Positions 13,798-24,466 of a stretch of DNA of 32,681 nt are shown here, one piece after another. A program made the position numbers and the translations under genes. Source of the DNA: Elusimicrobiaceae bacterium (GTDB taxonomy: Bacteria; Elusimicrobiota; Elusimicrobia; Elusimicrobiales; Elusimicrobiaceae); assembly GCA_045612685.1 (NCBI GenBank), contig JAZKZM010000219.1:1-32681 (forward strand). The letters run 5' to 3'. Under the pieces are notes generated by a model, which saw only the letters and a program-made list of their open reading frames with translations, searched no databases and was not told the DNA's origin. Each line of letters begins with the position of its first letter. Positions within the stretch are counted from its first letter, which is position 1.

Positions 13798-14838
13798 TTA
13801 ATAGCTAAATAGATCAATCGCTTTTATTAGATCCTCTGTATTTGTATCGGTGTAATGCTCTGTTATATCTGCATCGCTATGCCCTACAATGCGCTTGACG
13901 GTTAAACGGTCAATATTTAATCGGTGCGCCTGTGATATAAAGGTGTGCCGTGTTTCGTGCAGCGTGTGGTTTATTCCGTGCTTTTCGGCAAAAGGGTTGT
14001 ACCGATCCTTACGGAAAGTATCAGCGCCAAAGCCACGGCCTAAACTATTAACAAAGAGGCACGGTTTATTTGCGCTATAATGCTTTTGGATAATTGGCAA
14101 TATTTCTTTGCTTATCGGCACAAAACGAATGCCCGAGGGCGTTTTAGATTTTTCAATAAAAAGCAGCCTTTCGGCTATATTTACATTTTCCGTTTTTAGC
14201 TCTACTAGCTCGCTTATGCGCATTCCCGTATACAAAAGCACTAAAAGCATATCGGCTACAATGTGGCCTTGCATCGCCCATATTTGGGCGATCTCTTTTT
14301 TTGTAAATGGTATTTTATCGGTTTTCTTTTCTACTTTCGGGATCTCTATAAAATCGCTATATTTCTTGTCGCAAATATCGTGCTTTAAGGCGTATGCGTA
14401 TAATTGCGAAAAAAAGACCTTAAAAGAGGCTACATAAGAGGCCGTTTTGTTTTCATCAACAAGCGCCTGTAAATGCGCCGTTTTTATATCCTTAAACGGC
14501 AAATTATAAAGGCTTTCGCACTTGCGGTAAAGCATCGTATAGTTTTTAGCGGTTGATGTTGCTATTTTTTCGTACTTGCGTGCGCTCCATTCAGCATACA
14601 CCTCGTTAAATGTTGTTTTGTTGCTTACCCCGTAAGGGTTTTTATTATACTCAACAAGGCAAGCCAAAGCCTCGGTGCGCTTTTCAAAATAGCCTATATA
14701 TTTATATTTTTGCCTGTATTGCATTACGCCGTTTACCTCGCCCTTTTCATCATACCCAGCCGTAACACGCACGGCAAATGGCTTGCGGCGTTTCTTGCCG
14801 AGGTTAATAATTGAGCCGTAGCCGTTGGCAAATCTCAT
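13798..14838 (-). CDS. int: Tyrosine integrase with N-terminal arm-binding (AP2-like) domain
   Basis: 346 aa with catalytic signatures GMRISEL, HETRHTF and GHSD..TEHYT. Confidence 0.9.
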   Translation of the reverse strand: MRFANGYGSIINLGKKRRKPFAVRVTAGYDEKGEVNGVMQYRQKYKYIGYFEKRTEALACLVEYNKNPYGVSNKTTFNEVYAEWSARKYEKIATSTAKNYTMLYRKCESLYNLPFKDIKTAHLQALVDENKTASYVASFKVFFSQLYAYALKHDICDKKYSDFIEIPKVEKKTDKIPFTKKEIAQIWAMQGHIVADMLLVLLYTGMRISELVELKTENVNIAERLLFIEKSKTPSGIRFVPISKEILPIIQKHYSANKPCLFVNSLGRGFGADTFRKDRYNPFAEKHGINHTLHETRHTFISQAHRLNIDRLTVKRIVGHSDADITEHYTDTNTEDLIKAIDLFSY

Positions 14839-15005
14839 AAGCCGATATATTCCTTTACCTTTTCTGGATAAATAATGTAGGTGTATTTGCTAGATGTTTT
14901 TACGGCTGATCCAAAGGGCAGCGCTCCCCGTTGCAACCCAATACGCACGCTTTGCGGGCTAACGCCTAAAGCCTCGGCCACCTCGTTTACCGTTATTTTC
15001 CCCAT
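14835..15005 (-). CDS. xis: Excisionase-family HTH DNA-binding protein (56 aa, not in the ORF track)
   Basis: Hand translation gives MGKITVNEVAEALGVSPQSVRIGLQRGALPFG.... The stop overlaps the int start codon. Confidence 0.6.
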   Translation of the reverse strand: MGKITVNEVAEALGVSPQSVRIGLQRGALPFGSAVKTSSKYTYIIYPEKVKEYIGL

Positions 15006-15011
15006 TTCTTT

Positions 15012-15338
15012 TTAATCCTCCATATCAAGATATATTTTCATAATCTCTTTATAGGCTTGCGCCTTTTCCTCGGCGCTTATTGTTTCATCGGCAAAAAGCA
15101 CTTTGGCACGGGCTACCAGATCTACGGCGGCGCTACCGCCAAAGCCGAAATACTCTAGATTAACGCCTAGCGCCTCGCTTATGGCCTCTAGCTCCTTTAT
15201 GTGCGGCGATCTGCGGCCGATCTCATAATTAGAGATAGTGGCACGCTTTACCTTTAATTTTTCGGCAAGCTGTTGCTGTGTTAAGCCTCTTGTTTTTCGT
15301 AAAATTTTAATCTTTTGGCCTATTTCCTCTTTTTCCAA
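15012..15338 (-). CDS. XRE/cI-type HTH repressor, short form without S24 peptidase domain
   Basis: Contains LRKTRGLTQQQLAEKLKVKRATISNYEIG. TTG start with SD GGAGGTG. It diverges from the early genes. Confidence 0.8.
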   Translation of the reverse strand: MEKEEIGQKIKILRKTRGLTQQQLAEKLKVKRATISNYEIGRRSPHIKELEAISEALGVNLEYFGFGGSAAVDLVARAKVLFADETISAEEKAQAYKEIMKIYLDMED

Positions 15339-15397: not shown

Positions 15398-15457
15398 ATT
15401 TATTTATAGGGTAACACAAAAAATTTACTTTAGGCAAGAGAGGGGCAATATGTTTTT

Positions 15458-15649
15458 ATGGCGAAAAAATTTTTTTTAGAAAGAAATATGGAAATATTAA
15501 AAAATAACCGTGAAAAAACAAAGGGCGATTTGTTGAGAATGTTTGAGCTAATAACATATTTGGCCGTAAATCAAGAGATCACGCTTGACGAGGCCGAGCA
15601 CCACGCCTATTTATTATTTAAGATGCTGGAGGAGGTGGGGGAGAGTTAA
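15458..15649 (+). CDS. Hypothetical early protein (63 aa)
   Basis: ORF diverging from the repressor gene; no recognisable HTH. Confidence 0.45.
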   Translation: MAKKFFLERNMEILKNNREKTKGDLLRMFELITYLAVNQEITLDEAEHHAYLLFKMLEEVGES

Positions 15650-15690
15650 GCCCTTGCGTTTATGAACGAATTGTAAATAGTAAAAATATT

Positions 15691-15703
15691 TCACATAATG
15701 TGA
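15691..15703. promoter_or_regulatory. Perfect 6-1-6 palindrome TCACATAATGTGA just upstream of the -35 (putative operator)
   Basis: Read directly. Confidence 0.5.
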
Positions 15704-15712
15704 AAAAAACTA

Positions 15713-15741
15713 TTGACAAAGTAAAAAAACTATGGTAAAAT
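15713..15741 (+). promoter_or_regulatory. Near-consensus sigma-A promoter: TTGACA, 17-nt spacer, TGgTAAAAT (extended -10)
   Basis: -35 at 15713-15718, TG at 15733-15734, -10 at 15736-15741. Confidence 0.7.
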
Positions 15742-15795
15742 AGTATCAAGAAACAACCGAACAGATGTTCGGTAAAATGAAAGGTAAAAAAGAAA

Positions 15796-15939
15796 ATGAA
15801 ACATTATTACAGAGTAGATGTGATCGAGGAAAAAGAAATCATAAGCGTGTTTGCAAGCGAAGATTACGAAGAGGCTTGCCGAGTGTACGATGTATGGGCG
15901 CAGACACACGCAGTAATGATGCACGAAATCAACCTTTAA
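15796..15939 (+). CDS. Small hypothetical protein (47 aa, not in track)
   Basis: MKHYYRVDVIEEKEIISVFASEDYEEACRVYDVWAQTHAVMMHEINL. It lies downstream of the promoter and is more plausible than the Arg-rich 15765-15965 track ORF. Confidence 0.45.
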   Translation: MKHYYRVDVIEEKEIISVFASEDYEEACRVYDVWAQTHAVMMHEINL

Positions 15940-15978
15940 TAAACCAGCCGAGGGCGGCGGCTTAAAACCGCCCACAAA

Positions 15979-15994
15979 GCTACACAACGCAACA
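15979..15994 (+). repeat. Triple-pentamer motif copy 3 (GCTAC ACAAC GCAAC A)
   Basis: Read directly; 24 nt upstream of ATG 16019. Confidence 0.9.
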
Positions 15995-16018
15995 TTATAA
16001 AACGAAAGGTAACAGGAA

Positions 16019-16222
16019 ATGAAAAACGGAAGAATTTACAACAACGCAATTTACGGCTTTAAGAGAGTTAACGGCGAGCTTATCGCTTGCGTTTGCAACG
16101 GTGGCAAGCCCTACGAGTTTAAGCTTACAGGCAAGAGCGTTACGGCGTGCGTAAAGGAAATGCGCAAGGCTGGCATTGTTGTTATGGATTATGCAATAGC
16201 ATCGCTCAAAACATACTTTTAA
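16019..16222 (+). CDS. Hypothetical protein (67 aa)
   Basis: ORF co-oriented with the early operon. Confidence 0.5.
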   Translation: MKNGRIYNNAIYGFKRVNGELIACVCNGGKPYEFKLTGKSVTACVKEMRKAGIVVMDYAIASLKTYF

Positions 16223-16229
16223 TCTAAAA

Positions 16230-16245
16230 GCTACACAACGCAACA
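16230..16245 (+). repeat. Triple-pentamer motif copy 4 (GCTAC ACAAC GCAAC A)
   Basis: About 20 nt (AAAGCTACACAACGCAACAT) are identical to copy 3; followed by AAAGGAGG and ATG 16265. Confidence 0.9.
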
Positions 16246-16264
16246 TAAACAAAGGAGGCAACCA

Positions 16265-16402
16265 ATGTTTAGAGTTATTAAGAGGCTTTTTAAAAAGCAA
16301 CCGCCTAAAGCGGTTGTGCATAGCAAAGGCAAGGTTTATGAGTTTTCAACGCTGGAGCAAGCTATGGCATTTGTAATGCGCAAAAAGGGGGTGAGAATTT
16401 GA
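16265..16402 (+). CDS. Small hypothetical protein (45 aa, not in track)
   Basis: Strong SD AAAGGAGG 8 nt upstream. The stop overlaps the TTG start of the next gene. Confidence 0.5.
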   Translation: MFRVIKRLFKKQPPKAVVHSKGKVYEFSTLEQAMAFVMRKKGVRI

Positions 16403-16794
16403 AAAAGGAGCTATTAAAGCTTATAGCGCTAAAGGGGCGAAAGGCCGAGGCGCTGGCCGATGCTATTATAGCGGCTGGCTGGCGCAAGCTGCCCGTTAGC
16501 GTAGGGCAAACGGTGTGGGTGCTAGAGGTATCAAACTTTAACGAAAAGCACGCTATTTGCCCTTACAAGGTGGCCGAAATCCACGAGCGAGAGGCTGGCT
16601 TTGTAACCTTTGTGGCCGATAAGCTCTATAGCGGCGGTGGGCGGTATTCTTTCACATTTGCCGAGGCTGCCGTAGGCGCTAGCGTTTTTGCAACCGAGGC
16701 CGATGCTATTAAAGCTTATCTAAAGCATTTTAGGCAATACGGCGCAATGCCAGATTATCCAATGCTTGAAAACGGAAAGGAGAAATTTAATTGA
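16399..16794 (+). CDS. Hypothetical protein (131 aa)
   Basis: ORF in the operon, TTG start. Confidence 0.55.
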   Translation: MKKELLKLIALKGRKAEALADAIIAAGWRKLPVSVGQTVWVLEVSNFNEKHAICPYKVAEIHEREAGFVTFVADKLYSGGGRYSFTFAEAAVGASVFATEADAIKAYLKHFRQYGAMPDYPMLENGKEKFN

Positions 16795-16997: not shown

Positions 16998-17038
16998 GGC
17001 TACTAACCAACAAACAAAGCAAAGCGCACGCATTTAAT

Positions 17039-17054
17039 GCGCCGCAACGCAACA
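17039..17054 (+). repeat. Triple-pentamer motif copy 5 (GCGCC GCAAC GCAAC A)
   Basis: Read directly; 22 nt upstream of the erf ATG. Confidence 0.9.
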
Positions 17055-17076: not shown

Positions 17077-17640
17077 ATGACGATCTACAAAAAATTACAA
17101 GTAATCCAAGAAAAGCTTAAAGCGCCAAAAAGCCAATGGAACAAATTCGGCGGGTACGCTTTCCGTAGCTGCGAGGATATTTTAGAGGCTGTAAAGCCGT
17201 TATGCGCCGAGGTAAAGGCGGCCGTGGTTTTAACAGATGCTATAGAGCTTATCGGCGGCCGTTATTATGTAAAGGCAACGGCAAGGCTTTACGATGCCGA
17301 TATAGAAAGCTTTGTTGAAAATGTGGCTTTTGCTCGGGAGGATGAGAGCAAAAAGGGAATGGATGGGGCGCAGCTTACAGGCGCTACCTCAAGCTATGCC
17401 CGCAAATATGCGCTTAACGGCCTATTTGCTATCGATGATACCAAAGATGGCGATAGCGGCGAAACAACCGCAGCGCCGCAAAGCTCGCTAGATCCAAAGC
17501 TACTGGCCGAGGCCGAGCGCCTTAAAATCGAGCTTGCCAATATTGCGGCGTATCTTAAAAAGCCCGTTGAGAATTTAACTAACGAGGATCTTGCAAAATG
17601 CATCGAAACTAAAAAGAAAGCGCTGGAGGGGGCAAAATGA
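17077..17640 (+). CDS. erf: ERF-family single-strand annealing recombinase
   Basis: As I recall the P22 Erf sequence, the N-terminal 130 aa align closely with it: RSCEDILEAVKPL, GGRYYVKATA, KKGMDGAQLTGATSSYARKYALNGLF. Confidence 0.85.
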   Translation: MTIYKKLQVIQEKLKAPKSQWNKFGGYAFRSCEDILEAVKPLCAEVKAAVVLTDAIELIGGRYYVKATARLYDADIESFVENVAFAREDESKKGMDGAQLTGATSSYARKYALNGLFAIDDTKDGDSGETTAAPQSSLDPKLLAEAERLKIELANIAAYLKKPVENLTNEDLAKCIETKKKALEGAK

Positions 17641-21330: not shown

Positions 21331-21493
21331 TCAATACGCATTTTGCTCCATATGCGGTAGGTATGAGCGCAAAAGAAAAATGAGGCCTATTTATACGGCT
21401 GCTTCAAGCAGTATGCCGCCAAAATTGCTTTGCTATTTGTGCGATGCTTGCTTTGCCGATGCTTTAGAGCGATGCGAAATTAGCGAGCCGTAG
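21323..21493 (+). CDS. Small zinc-ribbon-like protein (56 aa)
   Basis: GTG 21323 follows GGAGGG; carries CxxC...CxxC pairs. Confidence 0.4.
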   Translation: MNNQYAFCSICGRYERKRKMRPIYTAASSSMPPKLLCYLCDACFADALERCEISEP

Positions 21494-21516
21494 GTATGTA
21501 AGCATACATACTAAAA

Positions 21517-21532
21517 GCAACGCAACGCAACA
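21517..21532 (+). repeat. Triple-pentamer motif copy 6 (GCAAC GCAAC GCAAC A)
   Basis: A perfect (GCAAC)x3; lies 28 nt upstream of the -35 at 21560. Confidence 0.9.
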
Positions 21533-21559
21533 TTTCTAAAAGAAAATACGCCAAAGTGG

Positions 21560-21587
21560 TTGACTTTTCTAAAAATTTGATTATAAT
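21560..21587 (+). promoter_or_regulatory. Near-consensus sigma-A promoter: TTGACT, 16-nt spacer, TATAAT
   Basis: -35 at 21560-21565 and -10 at 21582-21587. Confidence 0.65.
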
Positions 21588-21593
21588 AATTAG

Positions 21594-21776
21594 TGTGAGG
21601 TTAGCACACCCTATGGCGGCGCTTTCGCCCAGATGCGAAAGATAGACACGCTATAGGGCGGCGGCCTCCGTTAGTTGGTAGTATTGGCCGATGCTACTAG
21701 CGCAATTCAATATTACCAACGGCAAAGGCATTTACTGCACGAGGCGGCCACCTCTAGCGGTAAGTGCTTTTTGTTT
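21594..21776 (+). ncRNA. Structured GC-rich leader or small RNA ending in an intrinsic terminator, upstream of the replisome-organizer gene
   Basis: Hand-folded helices: 21593-21597/21605-21609; 21609-21614/21653-21658 enclosing 21622-21628/21635-21641; a 15-bp interrupted helix 21668-21686/21708-21722; then the terminator. No ORF is present. Confidence 0.45.
21728..21776 (+). terminator. Intrinsic terminator about 20 nt before the start codon at 21796
   Basis: GCATTTACTGC/GCGGTAAGTGC (11 bp, 2 GU) plus GAGG/CCTC, with a 6-nt loop, followed by TTTTTGTTT. Confidence 0.7.
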
Positions 21777-21795
21777 ATATTAGCAAGGGGGATTT

Positions 21796-22524
21796 ATGGC
21801 AACTATTAGAGTTAACAAAACCAAAGATTATACCGTGATGAGCAATCACCATTTCAAGGAAAAGGGAATGAGCCTAAAGGCAAAGGGTTTGCTTTCGCTT
21901 ATGTTGTCCTTGCCCGATAATTGGGATTATTCTATAGCTGGGCTTGCCACGCTTTCCAAAGATGGCAAGGATAGCGTTATGGGGGCATTAAATGAGCTTG
22001 AAAAGTTTGGGTATTTGATCCGCACCAAGTGCGTTGATGCTAAAGGGCGCTTTGCGGGCTACGATTACGATATATACGAAAAGCCGCACACGGAAAAGCC
22101 GAAAGAGGATGCACCGTATGCGGAAAAACCGAACACGGAAAAGCCGCCGCAATTAAATACTAATGAATTAAGCACTAAAAAATCAATTACTAATCAATCA
22201 ATAATTAAAGATATTATTGATTATTTGAACGAAAAAGCCGAAACGCAATATAGAGCAACAACGCCGAAAACAATAGAGCTAATTAGCGCTAGATTAAAAG
22301 AGGGCTTTACCATTGATGATTTTATTTTAGTAATTGATAAAAAAGTAGCAGAATGGAAAGGCACAGATTTTGAGCAATATATAAGGCCAGCAACGCTATT
22401 TGGCACTAAATTTGAGGGCTACCTAAACGCCAAGCCAAAAGCGGCGGCCAAGCCTACTAGCGGCATTATGGATGATTACAGGAGAATGCAAGAAAAAATT
22501 GATAACGGGGGGCTATTTGACTAA
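21796..22524 (+). CDS. Replisome organizer / replication initiator (N-terminal wHTH, C-terminal Phg_2220_C-like domain)
   Basis: N-terminus KDYTVMSNHHF...LKAKGLLSLMLSLPDNWDYS. C-terminus IIDYLNEKA...YRATTPKT...RLKEGFTIDDF...W. Confidence 0.75.
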   Translation: MATIRVNKTKDYTVMSNHHFKEKGMSLKAKGLLSLMLSLPDNWDYSIAGLATLSKDGKDSVMGALNELEKFGYLIRTKCVDAKGRFAGYDYDIYEKPHTEKPKEDAPYAEKPNTEKPPQLNTNELSTKKSITNQSIIKDIIDYLNEKAETQYRATTPKTIELISARLKEGFTIDDFILVIDKKVAEWKGTDFEQYIRPATLFGTKFEGYLNAKPKAAAKPTSGIMDDYRRMQEKIDNGGLFD

Positions 22525-23132
22525 TGAGGGCTTTAACCATTGAGGATGTTAACAAGTATATTACTATGATCCGCATAAACTTTGAAAACGCCTATAAATC
22601 GCATAACGATGAGGAGCGAGAAATGCTTTTACAATCGTGGTATGCTATTTTAAGAGATTACCCAAAGGAGATCTGCGATAAGGCCGTAATTAACGCCATT
22701 AAAAACGCAGAGTTTGCGCCTCGCATCGGTGCTATTGTCAAAGAAATAGAAAAGATGCTAGAGGCGTATGAAAAGACAGATGGCGAGCTTTGGGAGGAGC
22801 TTAAACGCTGCTTGCGTGAGGTTGCCAATTGCGCCTATAAGTTTAGGTTTAACTTTATAGAGGCCAACGGCAAGACGCAGGGAGAAAATGCCCGTGAACG
22901 GGTAGAGGCAATTTATAGCGCCCTATCGCCAGAGCTTAAAGAGTATGTGCGCAGCGTGCACGCACTAATCGAAATGGCACAGCTTACCGAGGAGCAGCTA
23001 GGCTACGAGCGCAACCGATTTGCCAAAACAGCGCCGCAGATCAAGCAGCGCACCCGAACACGGGCAGAGATTGGCGGCAGCTTGTCGGGGCTTATCCAAG
23101 GAATTAACGAGCGCTATTTGATCGAGGGGTAA
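22524..23132 (+). CDS. G39P-like helicase-loader protein
   Basis: The N-terminal pattern (LLQSWYAILRDYPKE...FAPRIG) resembles SPP1 G39P. TAATG overlap with the organizer gene. Confidence 0.5.
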   Translation: MRALTIEDVNKYITMIRINFENAYKSHNDEEREMLLQSWYAILRDYPKEICDKAVINAIKNAEFAPRIGAIVKEIEKMLEAYEKTDGELWEELKRCLREVANCAYKFRFNFIEANGKTQGENARERVEAIYSALSPELKEYVRSVHALIEMAQLTEEQLGYERNRFAKTAPQIKQRTRTRAEIGGSLSGLIQGINERYLIEG

Positions 23133-23866: not shown

Positions 23867-23902
23867 AACAATTTGAAAAGTTAACGAAAAGGGGTATATA
23901 AT

Positions 23903-24097: not shown

Positions 24098-24449
24098 GCA
24101 AAAGCTACCGAGCCTTAACGATTATACGGCGGCTTGCCGTGCTAATAAGTATGTTGGCGCTAAATTTAAAGCAGAGGTTGAGGAGGTTATAGGCTGGGCT
24201 ATTAAGCAAGCTTTGGCCTCCAAAAGCCTACGCAAGCCAACGGGGGCGGTGGTTGTTTCTTTTGAATGGCACGAGAGAACAAAAAAACGAGATGCCGACA
24301 ATATCGCCAGCGCCAAAAAGTTTATTTTGGATGCGCTCGTAAAATGCGGCGTGCTGGTTGATGATAGCCGCAAATATGTGAAAGGCTTTCACGATACAAT
24401 AATTGATGATAGCGCCGACTTTGTAAGAGTTGAGCTAATAGAGGTTTGA
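24075..24449 (+). CDS. rusA: RusA-family Holliday junction resolvase, probable ATT (or ATA) start
   Basis: C-terminal RDADNIASAKKFILDALVKCGVLVDDS is RusA-like. RusA-like N-terminal sequence (KLPSLNDY...RANKYVGAKFK) runs upstream of the first TTG (24213) to an in-frame TGA at 24069-24071. GGAGG at 24064-24068 lies 6 nt before ATT 24075. Confidence 0.6.
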   Translation: MINQFLIKQKLPSLNDYTAACRANKYVGAKFKAEVEEVIGWAIKQALASKSLRKPTGAVVVSFEWHERTKKRDADNIASAKKFILDALVKCGVLVDDSRKYVKGFHDTIIDDSADFVRVELIEV

Positions 24450-24450
24450 T

Positions 24451-24466
24451 GCGCCACAACGCAACA
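24451..24466 (+). repeat. Triple-pentamer motif copy 9 (GCGCC ACAAC GCAAC A)
   Basis: Starts 1 nt after the rusA stop; followed by AAAGGAGG and ATG 24481. Confidence 0.9.

Follow-up and report, generated by a model that had tools for sequence, protein, structure and literature searches.

The 32,681-nucleotide (nt) stretch of DNA analysed here, hereafter the window, comes from an Elusimicrobiaceae assembly (GCA_045612685.1, contig JAZKZM010000219.1). It is a temperate, Firmicute-type phage, and our subject is the gap directly upstream of its replication initiator gene, rep (the protein being Rep). Our analysis showed that the part of this gap at 21672–21772, made of two consecutive hairpins (H2 and H3), belongs to a family of structured RNAs that is conserved, strand-specific and situated just 5' of phage Rep genes. 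In this family the loop of the terminator hairpin (box X') is always perfectly complementary to an upstream box (X) on the same transcript, and the two boxes change together between phages. The evidence points to an RNA on the + strand rather than a DNA element. Many phages of the gut and rumen carry the family ahead of their replication genes, and it is apparently undescribed, as our literature searches turned up no account of it. The parts of the site in the window are as follows:

21560–21587, + strand: sigma-70-type promoter, with −35 TTGACT at 21560–21565, a 16-nt spacer and −10 TATAAT at 21582–21587 (11/12 match)
21595–21669, + strand: H1, an extra GC-rich 5' hairpin of 75 nt, phage-specific and outside the family models R2 and R3 described below
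21674–21720, + strand: hairpin A (H2), with a lower stem of 10–14 bp, then an internal loop, topped by a small hairpin
21685–21690, + strand: box X, UGGCCG, which immediately follows a conserved GUAU and lies in the 5' arm of hairpin A's internal loop
21703–21714, + strand: conserved 3'-side motif of hairpin A, CAAUUCAAUAUU in the window and AAACUGAAUAUU in the family consensus
21728–21767, + strand: terminator hairpin T (H3), with an 11-bp lower stem, an AC/UA hinge (a 2x2 internal loop), a 4-bp apical stem and a 6-nt loop
21745–21750, + strand: box X', CGGCCA, the whole apical loop of T, with a predicted unpaired probability of 1.0
21768–21776, + strand: U-tract UUUUUGUUU (the tract is also written TTTTTGTTT), ending 20 nt before the rep ATG
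21785–21798, + strand: Shine–Dalgarno (SD) sequence AAGGGGG at 21785–21791 and the rep start codon at 21796

The original prediction made for this DNA, drawn from the sequence alone, had described a near-consensus promoter, a GC-rich folded leader and an intrinsic terminator ahead of a replication gene, and these parts held up well. The promoter at 21560–21587 is the top sigma-70 match within 17–27 kb, with a predicted start near 21593–21595; promoter-like sites as a class are not enriched in that interval (16 found vs 20 expected). The gap has a GC content of 0.52 against 0.35–0.40 in its flanks, carries the recurrent GGCGGC(C/G) words at 21615, 21660 and 21743 that had been pointed out, and is overlapped by only two short open reading frames (ORFs), of 44 aa (TTG start) and 30 aa, the original prediction having seen no plausible one. 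The predicted RNA, 21594–21780, folds into three hairpins with a minimum free energy of −83.6 kcal/mol and a z-score of −6.26, none of 200 shuffled sequences being as stable. Taken alone, H2 and H3 (the latter spanning 21721–21775) give z = −5.55, and H1 gives z = −3.98. The T hairpin with its U-tract has an energy of −25.8 kcal/mol; it was overlooked by a simple terminator scan because that scan disallows interrupted stems and internal loops. Box X is predicted to be about 50% unpaired. The SD sequence stands, as foreseen, between the terminator and the ATG, and the gene that follows is indeed a replication initiator (Phg_2220_C plus HTH_36, phrog_428). The window has a promoter, a leader and a U-tract terminator hairpin directly 5' of a gene, the layout by which an attenuator is recognised. 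H1 is possibly a 5' stabiliser.

We then searched for relatives with covariance models (CMs). A single-sequence model that included H1 (R1) found no relative, because H1 is specific to the window. The model R2, built only from three other loci (L301, L302 and L303; loci are cited by L numbers) with the window sequence excluded, gave a single significant match in the window, at 21672–21772 on the + strand (29.1 bits, E-value 4e-4, all R2 and R3 E-values being rough owing to the short model calibration), with the runner-up at 10.5 bits. R2 also matches L216, L004/6/7 and L219. The second-round model, R3, run on loci already collected, matches 31 of these, all on the sense (Rep) strand and all upstream of Rep genes. 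It found zero matches in 920 kb of unrelated viral contigs, a negative control made up of the loci returned by the 15-mer GGGCGGCGGCCTCCG. That 15-mer was discarded as a finder of relatives, all 120 of its matches being chance ones in high-GC phages.

The loci with the nearest Rep genes (L216, L217 and L218) differ from the window in upstream sequence and share its architecture, with a promoter, a hairpin A of ~55 nt, a long terminator hairpin T, a U-tract, an SD sequence and rep in that order (z of −6.2 to −7.8). Across the family, members fold with z between −4 and −10. In the alignment of the window with its relatives, H2 corresponds to hairpin A and H3 to T, whereas at the place of H1 the relatives have nothing or a short hairpin. 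At six of the R3 loci (L354, L344, L338, L337, L341 and L404), Rep matched the query Rep over the C-terminal Phg_2220_C domain only; thus, the RNA tracks the replication module and not one Rep lineage. Membership of the family was also judged by a 5' sense promoter, a U-tract terminator and the 3'-side motif AAACUGAAUAU in hairpin A, with the terminator 20–40 nt 5' of Rep or of a small inserted ORF followed by Rep. The window has this promoter, terminator and motif, the last in the form CAAUUCAAUAUU. The original prediction had offered an attenuator or a terminated small RNA (sRNA) of ~180 nt alongside a riboswitch. Because the same architecture recurs 5' of the Rep genes of many other phages, attenuator and/or ~180-nt terminated sRNA is the right class, and the riboswitch part was not supported, as discussed below. 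Conservation and covariation of the helices in related phages, which it had proposed to check, are seen for H2 and H3; H1 is peculiar to the window.

Two observations on individual relatives may be added. In several of them (L299 1139–1498; L302/L303 1109–1495; L216 2817–3014; and L411), rep is separated from the RNA element by an HNH_3 endonuclease gene or by a small ORF, so the element there would gate a small operon and not rep alone. The closest relative of the window element is L354 430–524, in which the base of T and hairpin A's lower stem (UAGUUGGUAGUAU) match those of the window exactly, X/X' are different (UGUGCAA/UUGCACA), and a short 5' hairpin takes the place of H1; it would make a useful natural allele pair with the window.

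The X:X' rule is seen throughout the family. X' is the entire 6–9-nt loop of T and the Watson–Crick complement of X. Box X comes straight after the conserved GUAU, in the 5' arm of hairpin A's internal loop, and faces the 3' motif AAACUGAAUAU. The window pair, UGGCCG/CGGCCA, falls at the homologous columns, with a duplex energy of −11.9 kcal/mol. We found 19 distinct X/X' alleles with X at the homologous position, for example GGUUACGG/CCGUAACC, GUUGCGG/CCGCAAC, GAGCAAG/CUUGCUC, UAGCGG/CCGCUA, AGUGCG/CGCACU and ACUAGCCCU/AGGGCUAGU. In plain MAFFT alignments of the family, the 3'-side motif of hairpin A supplies the only invariant columns and RNAalifold returned 0 pairs from such non-structural alignments; pairing was thus counted in an anchor-based hand alignment and in CM alignments. 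In the anchor-based alignment of 14 alleles, all 94 of 94 cells are Watson–Crick, with 2.8 pair types per column; when partners were permuted, the mean was 53 Watson–Crick cells and the maximum 76, so that none of 5000 permutations reached 94. In the CM alignment, where X:X' is not modelled, pairing across the six positions still runs at 71–84%, and both partners vary at five of these; where cells fail to pair, the cause is a 1-nt register shift in an insert that the CM leaves unaligned. Tests by shuffling the upstream sequence gave P values of 0.001–0.03 for most loci and a Fisher combination of 5e-15.

The rule was also followed through wider samples. Our survey of 168 Rep-upstream regions, falling into 37 sequence clusters, showed a strong terminator 18–27 nt before the ATG in eight clusters, and in 8/8 its loop is complementary to an upstream box. 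It holds in 4/4 unselected look-ups chosen by Rep similarity alone (L299–L302), and 7/7 further, out-of-sample loci from the CM have a perfect 7-nt X:X' at the homologous place. As a background, only 9% of 468 terminator-like hairpins have any loop complement of at least 6 nt, and these are mostly AT-rich. Across the family, X' is always predicted to be unpaired, X is 2–87% unpaired, and the distance between their centres is 55–68 nt.

Within the window we found no convincing target for the T loop in trans, only near-chance matches at 14975, 16454 and 16568. Box X with its 3' flank (TGGCCGATGCT, 11 nt) is repeated at 16454–16464 in the early ORF 16399–16794, and GGCCGATGCT occurs once more at 16698–16707; these X-like repeats in the ORF could be a coding repeat (..ADAI..) or a second target of the T loop. 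The sequence CGGCCACCTC, comprising the T loop and 3' arm, is repeated on the + strand at 14975–14984, between the repressor and integrase genes; a minus-strand transcript there would therefore be complementary to the T loop over 10 nt, and about 0.3 such 10-nt matches are expected by chance.

Closely related loci provide natural compensatory alleles. L302 and L303 encode the same Rep protein (P0046) and are 100% identical for ~950 nt upstream and nearly so downstream, whereas their RNA elements differ by ~25 substitutions (72–82% identity), nearly all of which, as we read them, preserve pairing. Their boxes are GAGCAG/CUGCUC in L302 and AAGCAG/CUGCUU in L303. As the identical Rep occurs with different boxes, Rep is ruled out as the reader of X. 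In a second pair, L341 has GUACGAG/CUCGUAC and L337 has GUGUGAG/CUCACAC on identical T stems; since the whole locus is ~90% identical, this looks like drift with compensation and not like a hotspot. L302 and L303 also have a second patch of divergence at locus position ~2201–2250, at the rep stop and the start of the helicase loader gene, with 82% identity between flanks that are otherwise 100% identical.

The + strand folds better than its complement in 14/14 members, by 1–20 kcal/mol and typically by ~14, and the 85 G·U pairs counted in these members are on the + strand only. A sense promoter stands just 5' of the element in eight of the ten members scanned, and no consistent antisense (minus-strand) promoter was found in or downstream of the leader across 10 members. 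Stem covariation was counted over 18 sequences in a CM alignment, which is itself fitted to the model. In it, helix 1 (the lower stem of hairpin A) is 93.8% paired with both-side changes in 12/13 pairs, and T contributes helix 4 (its lower stem, 96.6% paired) and helix 5 (its apical stem, 93.8% paired), with both-side changes in every pair. Together, these three stems are 94–97% paired and have both-side changes in 27/28 pairs. Covariation scores 0.84 overall; shuffles give 0.23, with 0/500 as high, and slid partners reach at most 0.12.

A second class of rep leaders (L074/L069, L298/L020/L026 and L092) is without hairpin A. Here X, 9–15 nt long, comprises the first nucleotides of the transcript, and T is a perfect 17–26-bp stem with X' in its large loop. 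X is only 4–9 nt from the base of T, and by our own reading of the sequences an intramolecular contact of X with the folded T would be sterically implausible. Transcripts cut after X' fold into an X:X' hairpin of −13 to −23 kcal/mol, and those of full length fold into T. From the steric reading and the folds of the truncated transcripts, we infer that X:X' in this class is either an earlier-forming alternative fold or an intermolecular contact. In the window class, an exclusive antiterminator made by X:X' would be a pseudoknot, and pairing of the loop alone may leave the T stem intact.

Other rep leaders follow different designs. In L010, L013, L022, L024, L028 and about 50 further human-gut loci, the order is a tRNA array and then a terminator, and the loop of the latter (CUUCCGCU) is complementary to two AUCAAGCGGAG boxes further 3', the second being the SD sequence of rep. 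The design recurs in L072, there with CCUACGA and UCGUAGG, the latter in two copies. The boxes are invariant among 52 sequences. In the Rep subgroup comprising L225, L255, L309, L315, L316, L321–L328 and L335, a structured leader is absent, and a conserved CCGCAACTGGAC(W)(W)TCCGC box, a possible operator, lies ~40–60 nt 5' of rep, beside an extended −10 promoter and 3' of the terminator of the preceding operon.

The original prediction had also pointed to GCCUCC at 21664–21669 and GAGGC at 21741–21745 as the two halves of a possible antiterminator. The idea was not borne out: read by eye, the relatives have no counterpart of it, and GCCUCC lies inside H1, which they lack. The pairing conserved instead is that of UGGCCG (21685–21690) with the T loop CGGCCA (21745–21750). 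The Rfam scan proposed with that prediction was run and no known class matches: the whole window has nothing at the gathering threshold, 21400–21900 searched at E ≤ 10 gives only noise (microRNA and small nucleolar RNA models, E ≥ 0.4), and the relatives give no match.

As to function, we put at about even odds that the gap is a sense-strand leader RNA unit (promoter, H1, hairpin A and T) that gates the replication module as an attenuator with X:X' as its switch. Most transcripts would stop at T and be released as an sRNA (~180 nt here, ~100 nt in relatives), and only read-through would reach rep. The X:X' pair would be both the switch and the specificity element: since polymerase makes X' ahead of the 3' arm of T, X can pair with it before T closes. 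In the window class, the captured form would be a pseudoknot that stacks on hairpin A's lower stem, and in the class without hairpin A a plain hairpin. With X' captured, closure of T would be delayed and polymerase would read through, and hairpin A, by partly sequestering X, would favour termination. The released RNA, carrying X' in an open loop, might in turn act in trans, binding X on leaders of its own allele that are nascent or have been read through. Allele-specific product feedback or immunity acting on rep expression would be the result, and the switch may work in cis, in trans or both. Only tentatively would we go further and propose that the released rep leader is itself the repressor. 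By kissing X on the nascent leaders of its own allele, its T loop would impose termination, and this would provide copy-number feedback and, through the paired evolution of X/X', superinfection immunity by an RNA-only circuit in temperate Firmicute phages. Such a circuit would be a counterpart, on the sense strand, of the antisense copy control of plasmids and of the RNA immunity of P4.

Several points weigh against the attenuator as drawn. The promoter, the transcription start, termination and read-through are all computational predictions. X:X' need not block T and may be a static tertiary contact, since fully paired 6–7-nt loops can kiss without stem opening, and a lower T stem of ~10 bp might still terminate with X:X' formed. 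Taken alone, the 6-nt X:X' match of the window is not significant (P = 0.18 in the shuffle test) because H1 is GC-rich; its weight comes from its position and from the family. The first loci were chosen by eye, a selection bias that the CM matches and the unselected look-ups mitigate, and the stem covariation counts come from an alignment fitted to the model. A general diversification hotspot at the element was considered and rejected, as it is seen in L302 vs L303 only and not in L341 vs L337.

Among the alternatives, we weighed a protein-dependent antitermination checkpoint of the lambda PR'–tR' type, in which the promoter fires constitutively, a Q-, N- or put-like factor of the phage lets polymerase pass T, the sRNA is a by-product that may have acquired its own function, and X:X' merely shapes it. 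A near-consensus promoter, a leader of ~100–190 nt and a strong terminator directly before an operon are the same kind of layout, and the arrangement is exactly that of the StxS paper (PMC7547250). The conserved single-stranded AAACUGAAUAU in hairpin A could be a protein site, and a recurrent motif, CAACGCAACA, is found upstream of the studied promoter and of another one. We nevertheless regard this as unlikely: it leaves unexplained why the T loop and the upstream box are complementary and co-vary in every allele, and among the 30 window ORFs scanned there is no Pfam Q-, N- or LoaP-like protein, although such proteins are diverse and many of the ORFs are matchless. It is also rather improbable that the element is a stand-alone sRNA with a function elsewhere (as a sponge or decoy, in host defence or on an mRNA in trans), in which X:X' is a static kiss bridging the two hairpins at the hinge of T and which before rep is just a terminator and insulator. 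The height of X on hairpin A (~11–17 nt) is similar to that of the T hinge (~10–12 bp), X' is always and X partly unpaired, and the distance between their centres is nearly constant, all of which would suit such a kiss. The same contact is sterically implausible in the class without hairpin A, where X is so close to the perfect T stem; further, the strict linkage to Rep, even across different Rep N-terminal domains, argues for a rep-related role, and the window has no convincing target in trans.

ColE1-like and mycobacteriophage RNA-based origins are the models for an origin primed by a transcript. A DNA-level or origin element of this kind, with X and X' as inverted protein sites (iterons or operators) or with the transcript activating or priming an origin beside rep, would be in keeping with a position adjoining rep, with boxes that are inverted repeats ~60 bp apart and with another Rep subgroup whose boxes are direct repeats on either side of the promoter and SD region. 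RNA-based origins do exist in prophages (PMC7157519). Against it, the stems rely on G·U pairs that form on one strand only and the structure is strand-specific, X' is always in an RNA hairpin loop, the identical Rep of L302 and L303 goes with different X/X', the spacing is broken by a ~70-nt insertion in L299 and in the class without hairpin A, and a strong terminator ends the transcript before rep; we thus give this explanation very little weight. Even less is to be said for a metabolite- or ion-sensing riboswitch controlling rep. The promoter, structured leader and terminator are all present, and a pseudoknot with an expression platform is a known riboswitch design, but there is no Rfam match even at E ≤ 10, sequence conservation is limited to ~12 nt, the helices are long and near-perfect, and the most constrained feature is a pair of hypervariable complementary boxes (19 alleles), unlike a conserved ligand pocket and typical of RNA–RNA recognition. 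Finally, a terminator just 5' of the rep SD sequence in Firmicute plasmids is the hallmark of countertranscript-driven attenuation, and the gap displays it. An antisense RNA of the pT181/pIP501 type from the opposite strand of the leader is hardly credible here, given that no minus-strand promoter recurs consistently across the 10 members scanned and that the minus strand folds 1–20 kcal/mol worse.

The proposed attenuator can be set beside several known systems. The P4 CI RNA system governs premature termination through boxes in the replication-operon leader that are complementary to one another (PMC4825925). The likeness lies in an untranslated leader before replication genes that carries a regulator (seqB in CI RNA) and its complement or complements (the targets seqA and seqC) on one transcript. 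In P4, the pairing-controlled premature termination keeps the replication genes silent (PMC4825925), whereas the switch function here is only proposed. P4 is moreover a Gram-negative satellite phage and its CI RNA is processed out of the transcript, whereas the RNA here would be made by termination, its regulatory box being the loop of an intrinsic terminator. The Rfam C4 and IsrK models have no match in the window, which does carry the arrangement that marks the C4 clan, a regulator and a target box (X, X') on the same predicted leader transcript 5' of the controlled genes. In IsrK of the Gifsy-1 prophage, a short terminated isoform binds its own read-through isoform in trans (PMC4825925). 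One promoter giving rise to a terminated sRNA and a read-through mRNA is what we propose here too; IsrK, however, activates downstream translation, its targets are not replication genes, it is without the rule linking a terminator loop to an upstream box, and it shares no homology with the element.

StxS is an sRNA by-product terminated at tR' of a PR'–tR' unit (PMC7547250). The lambda and Stx PR'–tR' units (6S RNA and StxS) resemble the leader in having a strong promoter and a strong terminator within ~200 nt, placed before an operon and producing a short RNA. They differ in that they gate late genes and not rep, depend on Q, of which we find no homologue here, and are without covarying loop–box pairing. 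A regulatory role has been reported for sRNA terminator loops (PMC11979758). None of these cases (P4 CI RNA, IsrK, StxS and the sRNA terminator loops) is homologous to the element. The plasmids pT181, pIP501 and pAMbeta1 likewise have an intrinsic terminator immediately 5' of the rep SD sequence, and in them kissing-loop recognition sets both termination and incompatibility specificity. Their antisense RNA comes from the opposite strand, whereas here the 'antisense' is the terminator loop of the sense transcript itself. The c4 RNA of P1/P7 (immI) also has the sRNA and its target boxes on one transcript, and heteroimmune alleles differ in the paired boxes; it acts differently, by blocking a ribosome-binding site and thereby Rho-dependent ant expression, and the Rfam C4 model has no match here. 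Complementarity of a loop to the SD sequence in the manner of c4 is present in L072 and in the gut-cluster Rep leaders and not in the window.

For the question of when and how far temperate phages replicate in gut and rumen Firmicutes, the element is of interest as a compact (~100 nt), widespread and easily recognised module at the entry to the replication genes. It can be used as an annotation marker for replication modules and is a candidate for a new Rfam family. If the X:X' pairing sets termination or acts in trans, the element would represent a new attenuator design, with the antiterminator or regulator inside the terminator's own loop, and a candidate basis of RNA-encoded heteroimmunity or incompatibility among prophages. 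In that case, its 19 natural alleles would also be of use to synthetic biology as an orthogonal set.

The genes around the element in the window are as follows:

about 1–13.6 kb: packaging and structural genes
13798–14838, − strand: integrase
15012–15338, − strand: CI-like HTH repressor
17077–17640: ERF, followed in the rightward early block by a PD-(D/E)XK exonuclease, SSB, NinB and YopX, all 5' of the studied gap
21796–22524, + strand: rep, the replication initiator or replisome organizer (HTH_36 + Phg_2220_C, phrog_428)
22524–23132: G39P-like helicase loader, directly 3' of rep
3' of rep and the G39P-like loader: methyltransferases, a PAPS-reductase-like gene and an amidase

The window Rep is a singleton whose nearest relative has 71% identity. 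Exact look-ups of Rep and of the ORF upstream of it gave no record, species-representative genomes have only distant Rep relatives, and an exact 29-mer scan of IMG/VR gave no match. With blastn against GenBank phages, the gap has no similar DNA and the wider region matches within rep only. A scan for tRNA and tmRNA found zero genes. The region 15450–16400 is packed with small + strand genes bearing SD sequences, behind a TTGACA/extended −10 promoter near 15714; the longer minus-strand ORFs in it, 15730–15987 and 15995–16321, look spurious.

The motif CAACGCAACA has 15 occurrences in the window at up to one mismatch against 2.6 expected, with all exact copies on the + strand in intercistronic or 5' regions. 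Its + strand sites are 212–231, 15388, 15985, 16236, 17035–17054, 21518–21532, 23135, 23857 and 24447–24466. At the head of three gene blocks stands a 20-nt form of it, AATGCGCC(R)(Y)AACGCAACA. A tandem copy stands 28 nt 5' of the −35 of the promoter at 21560–21587, and a second promoter that also scores 11/12 (23873–23902) has a copy 7 nt 5' of its −35. The motif is probably a site for a phage regulator or an RNA-level signal.

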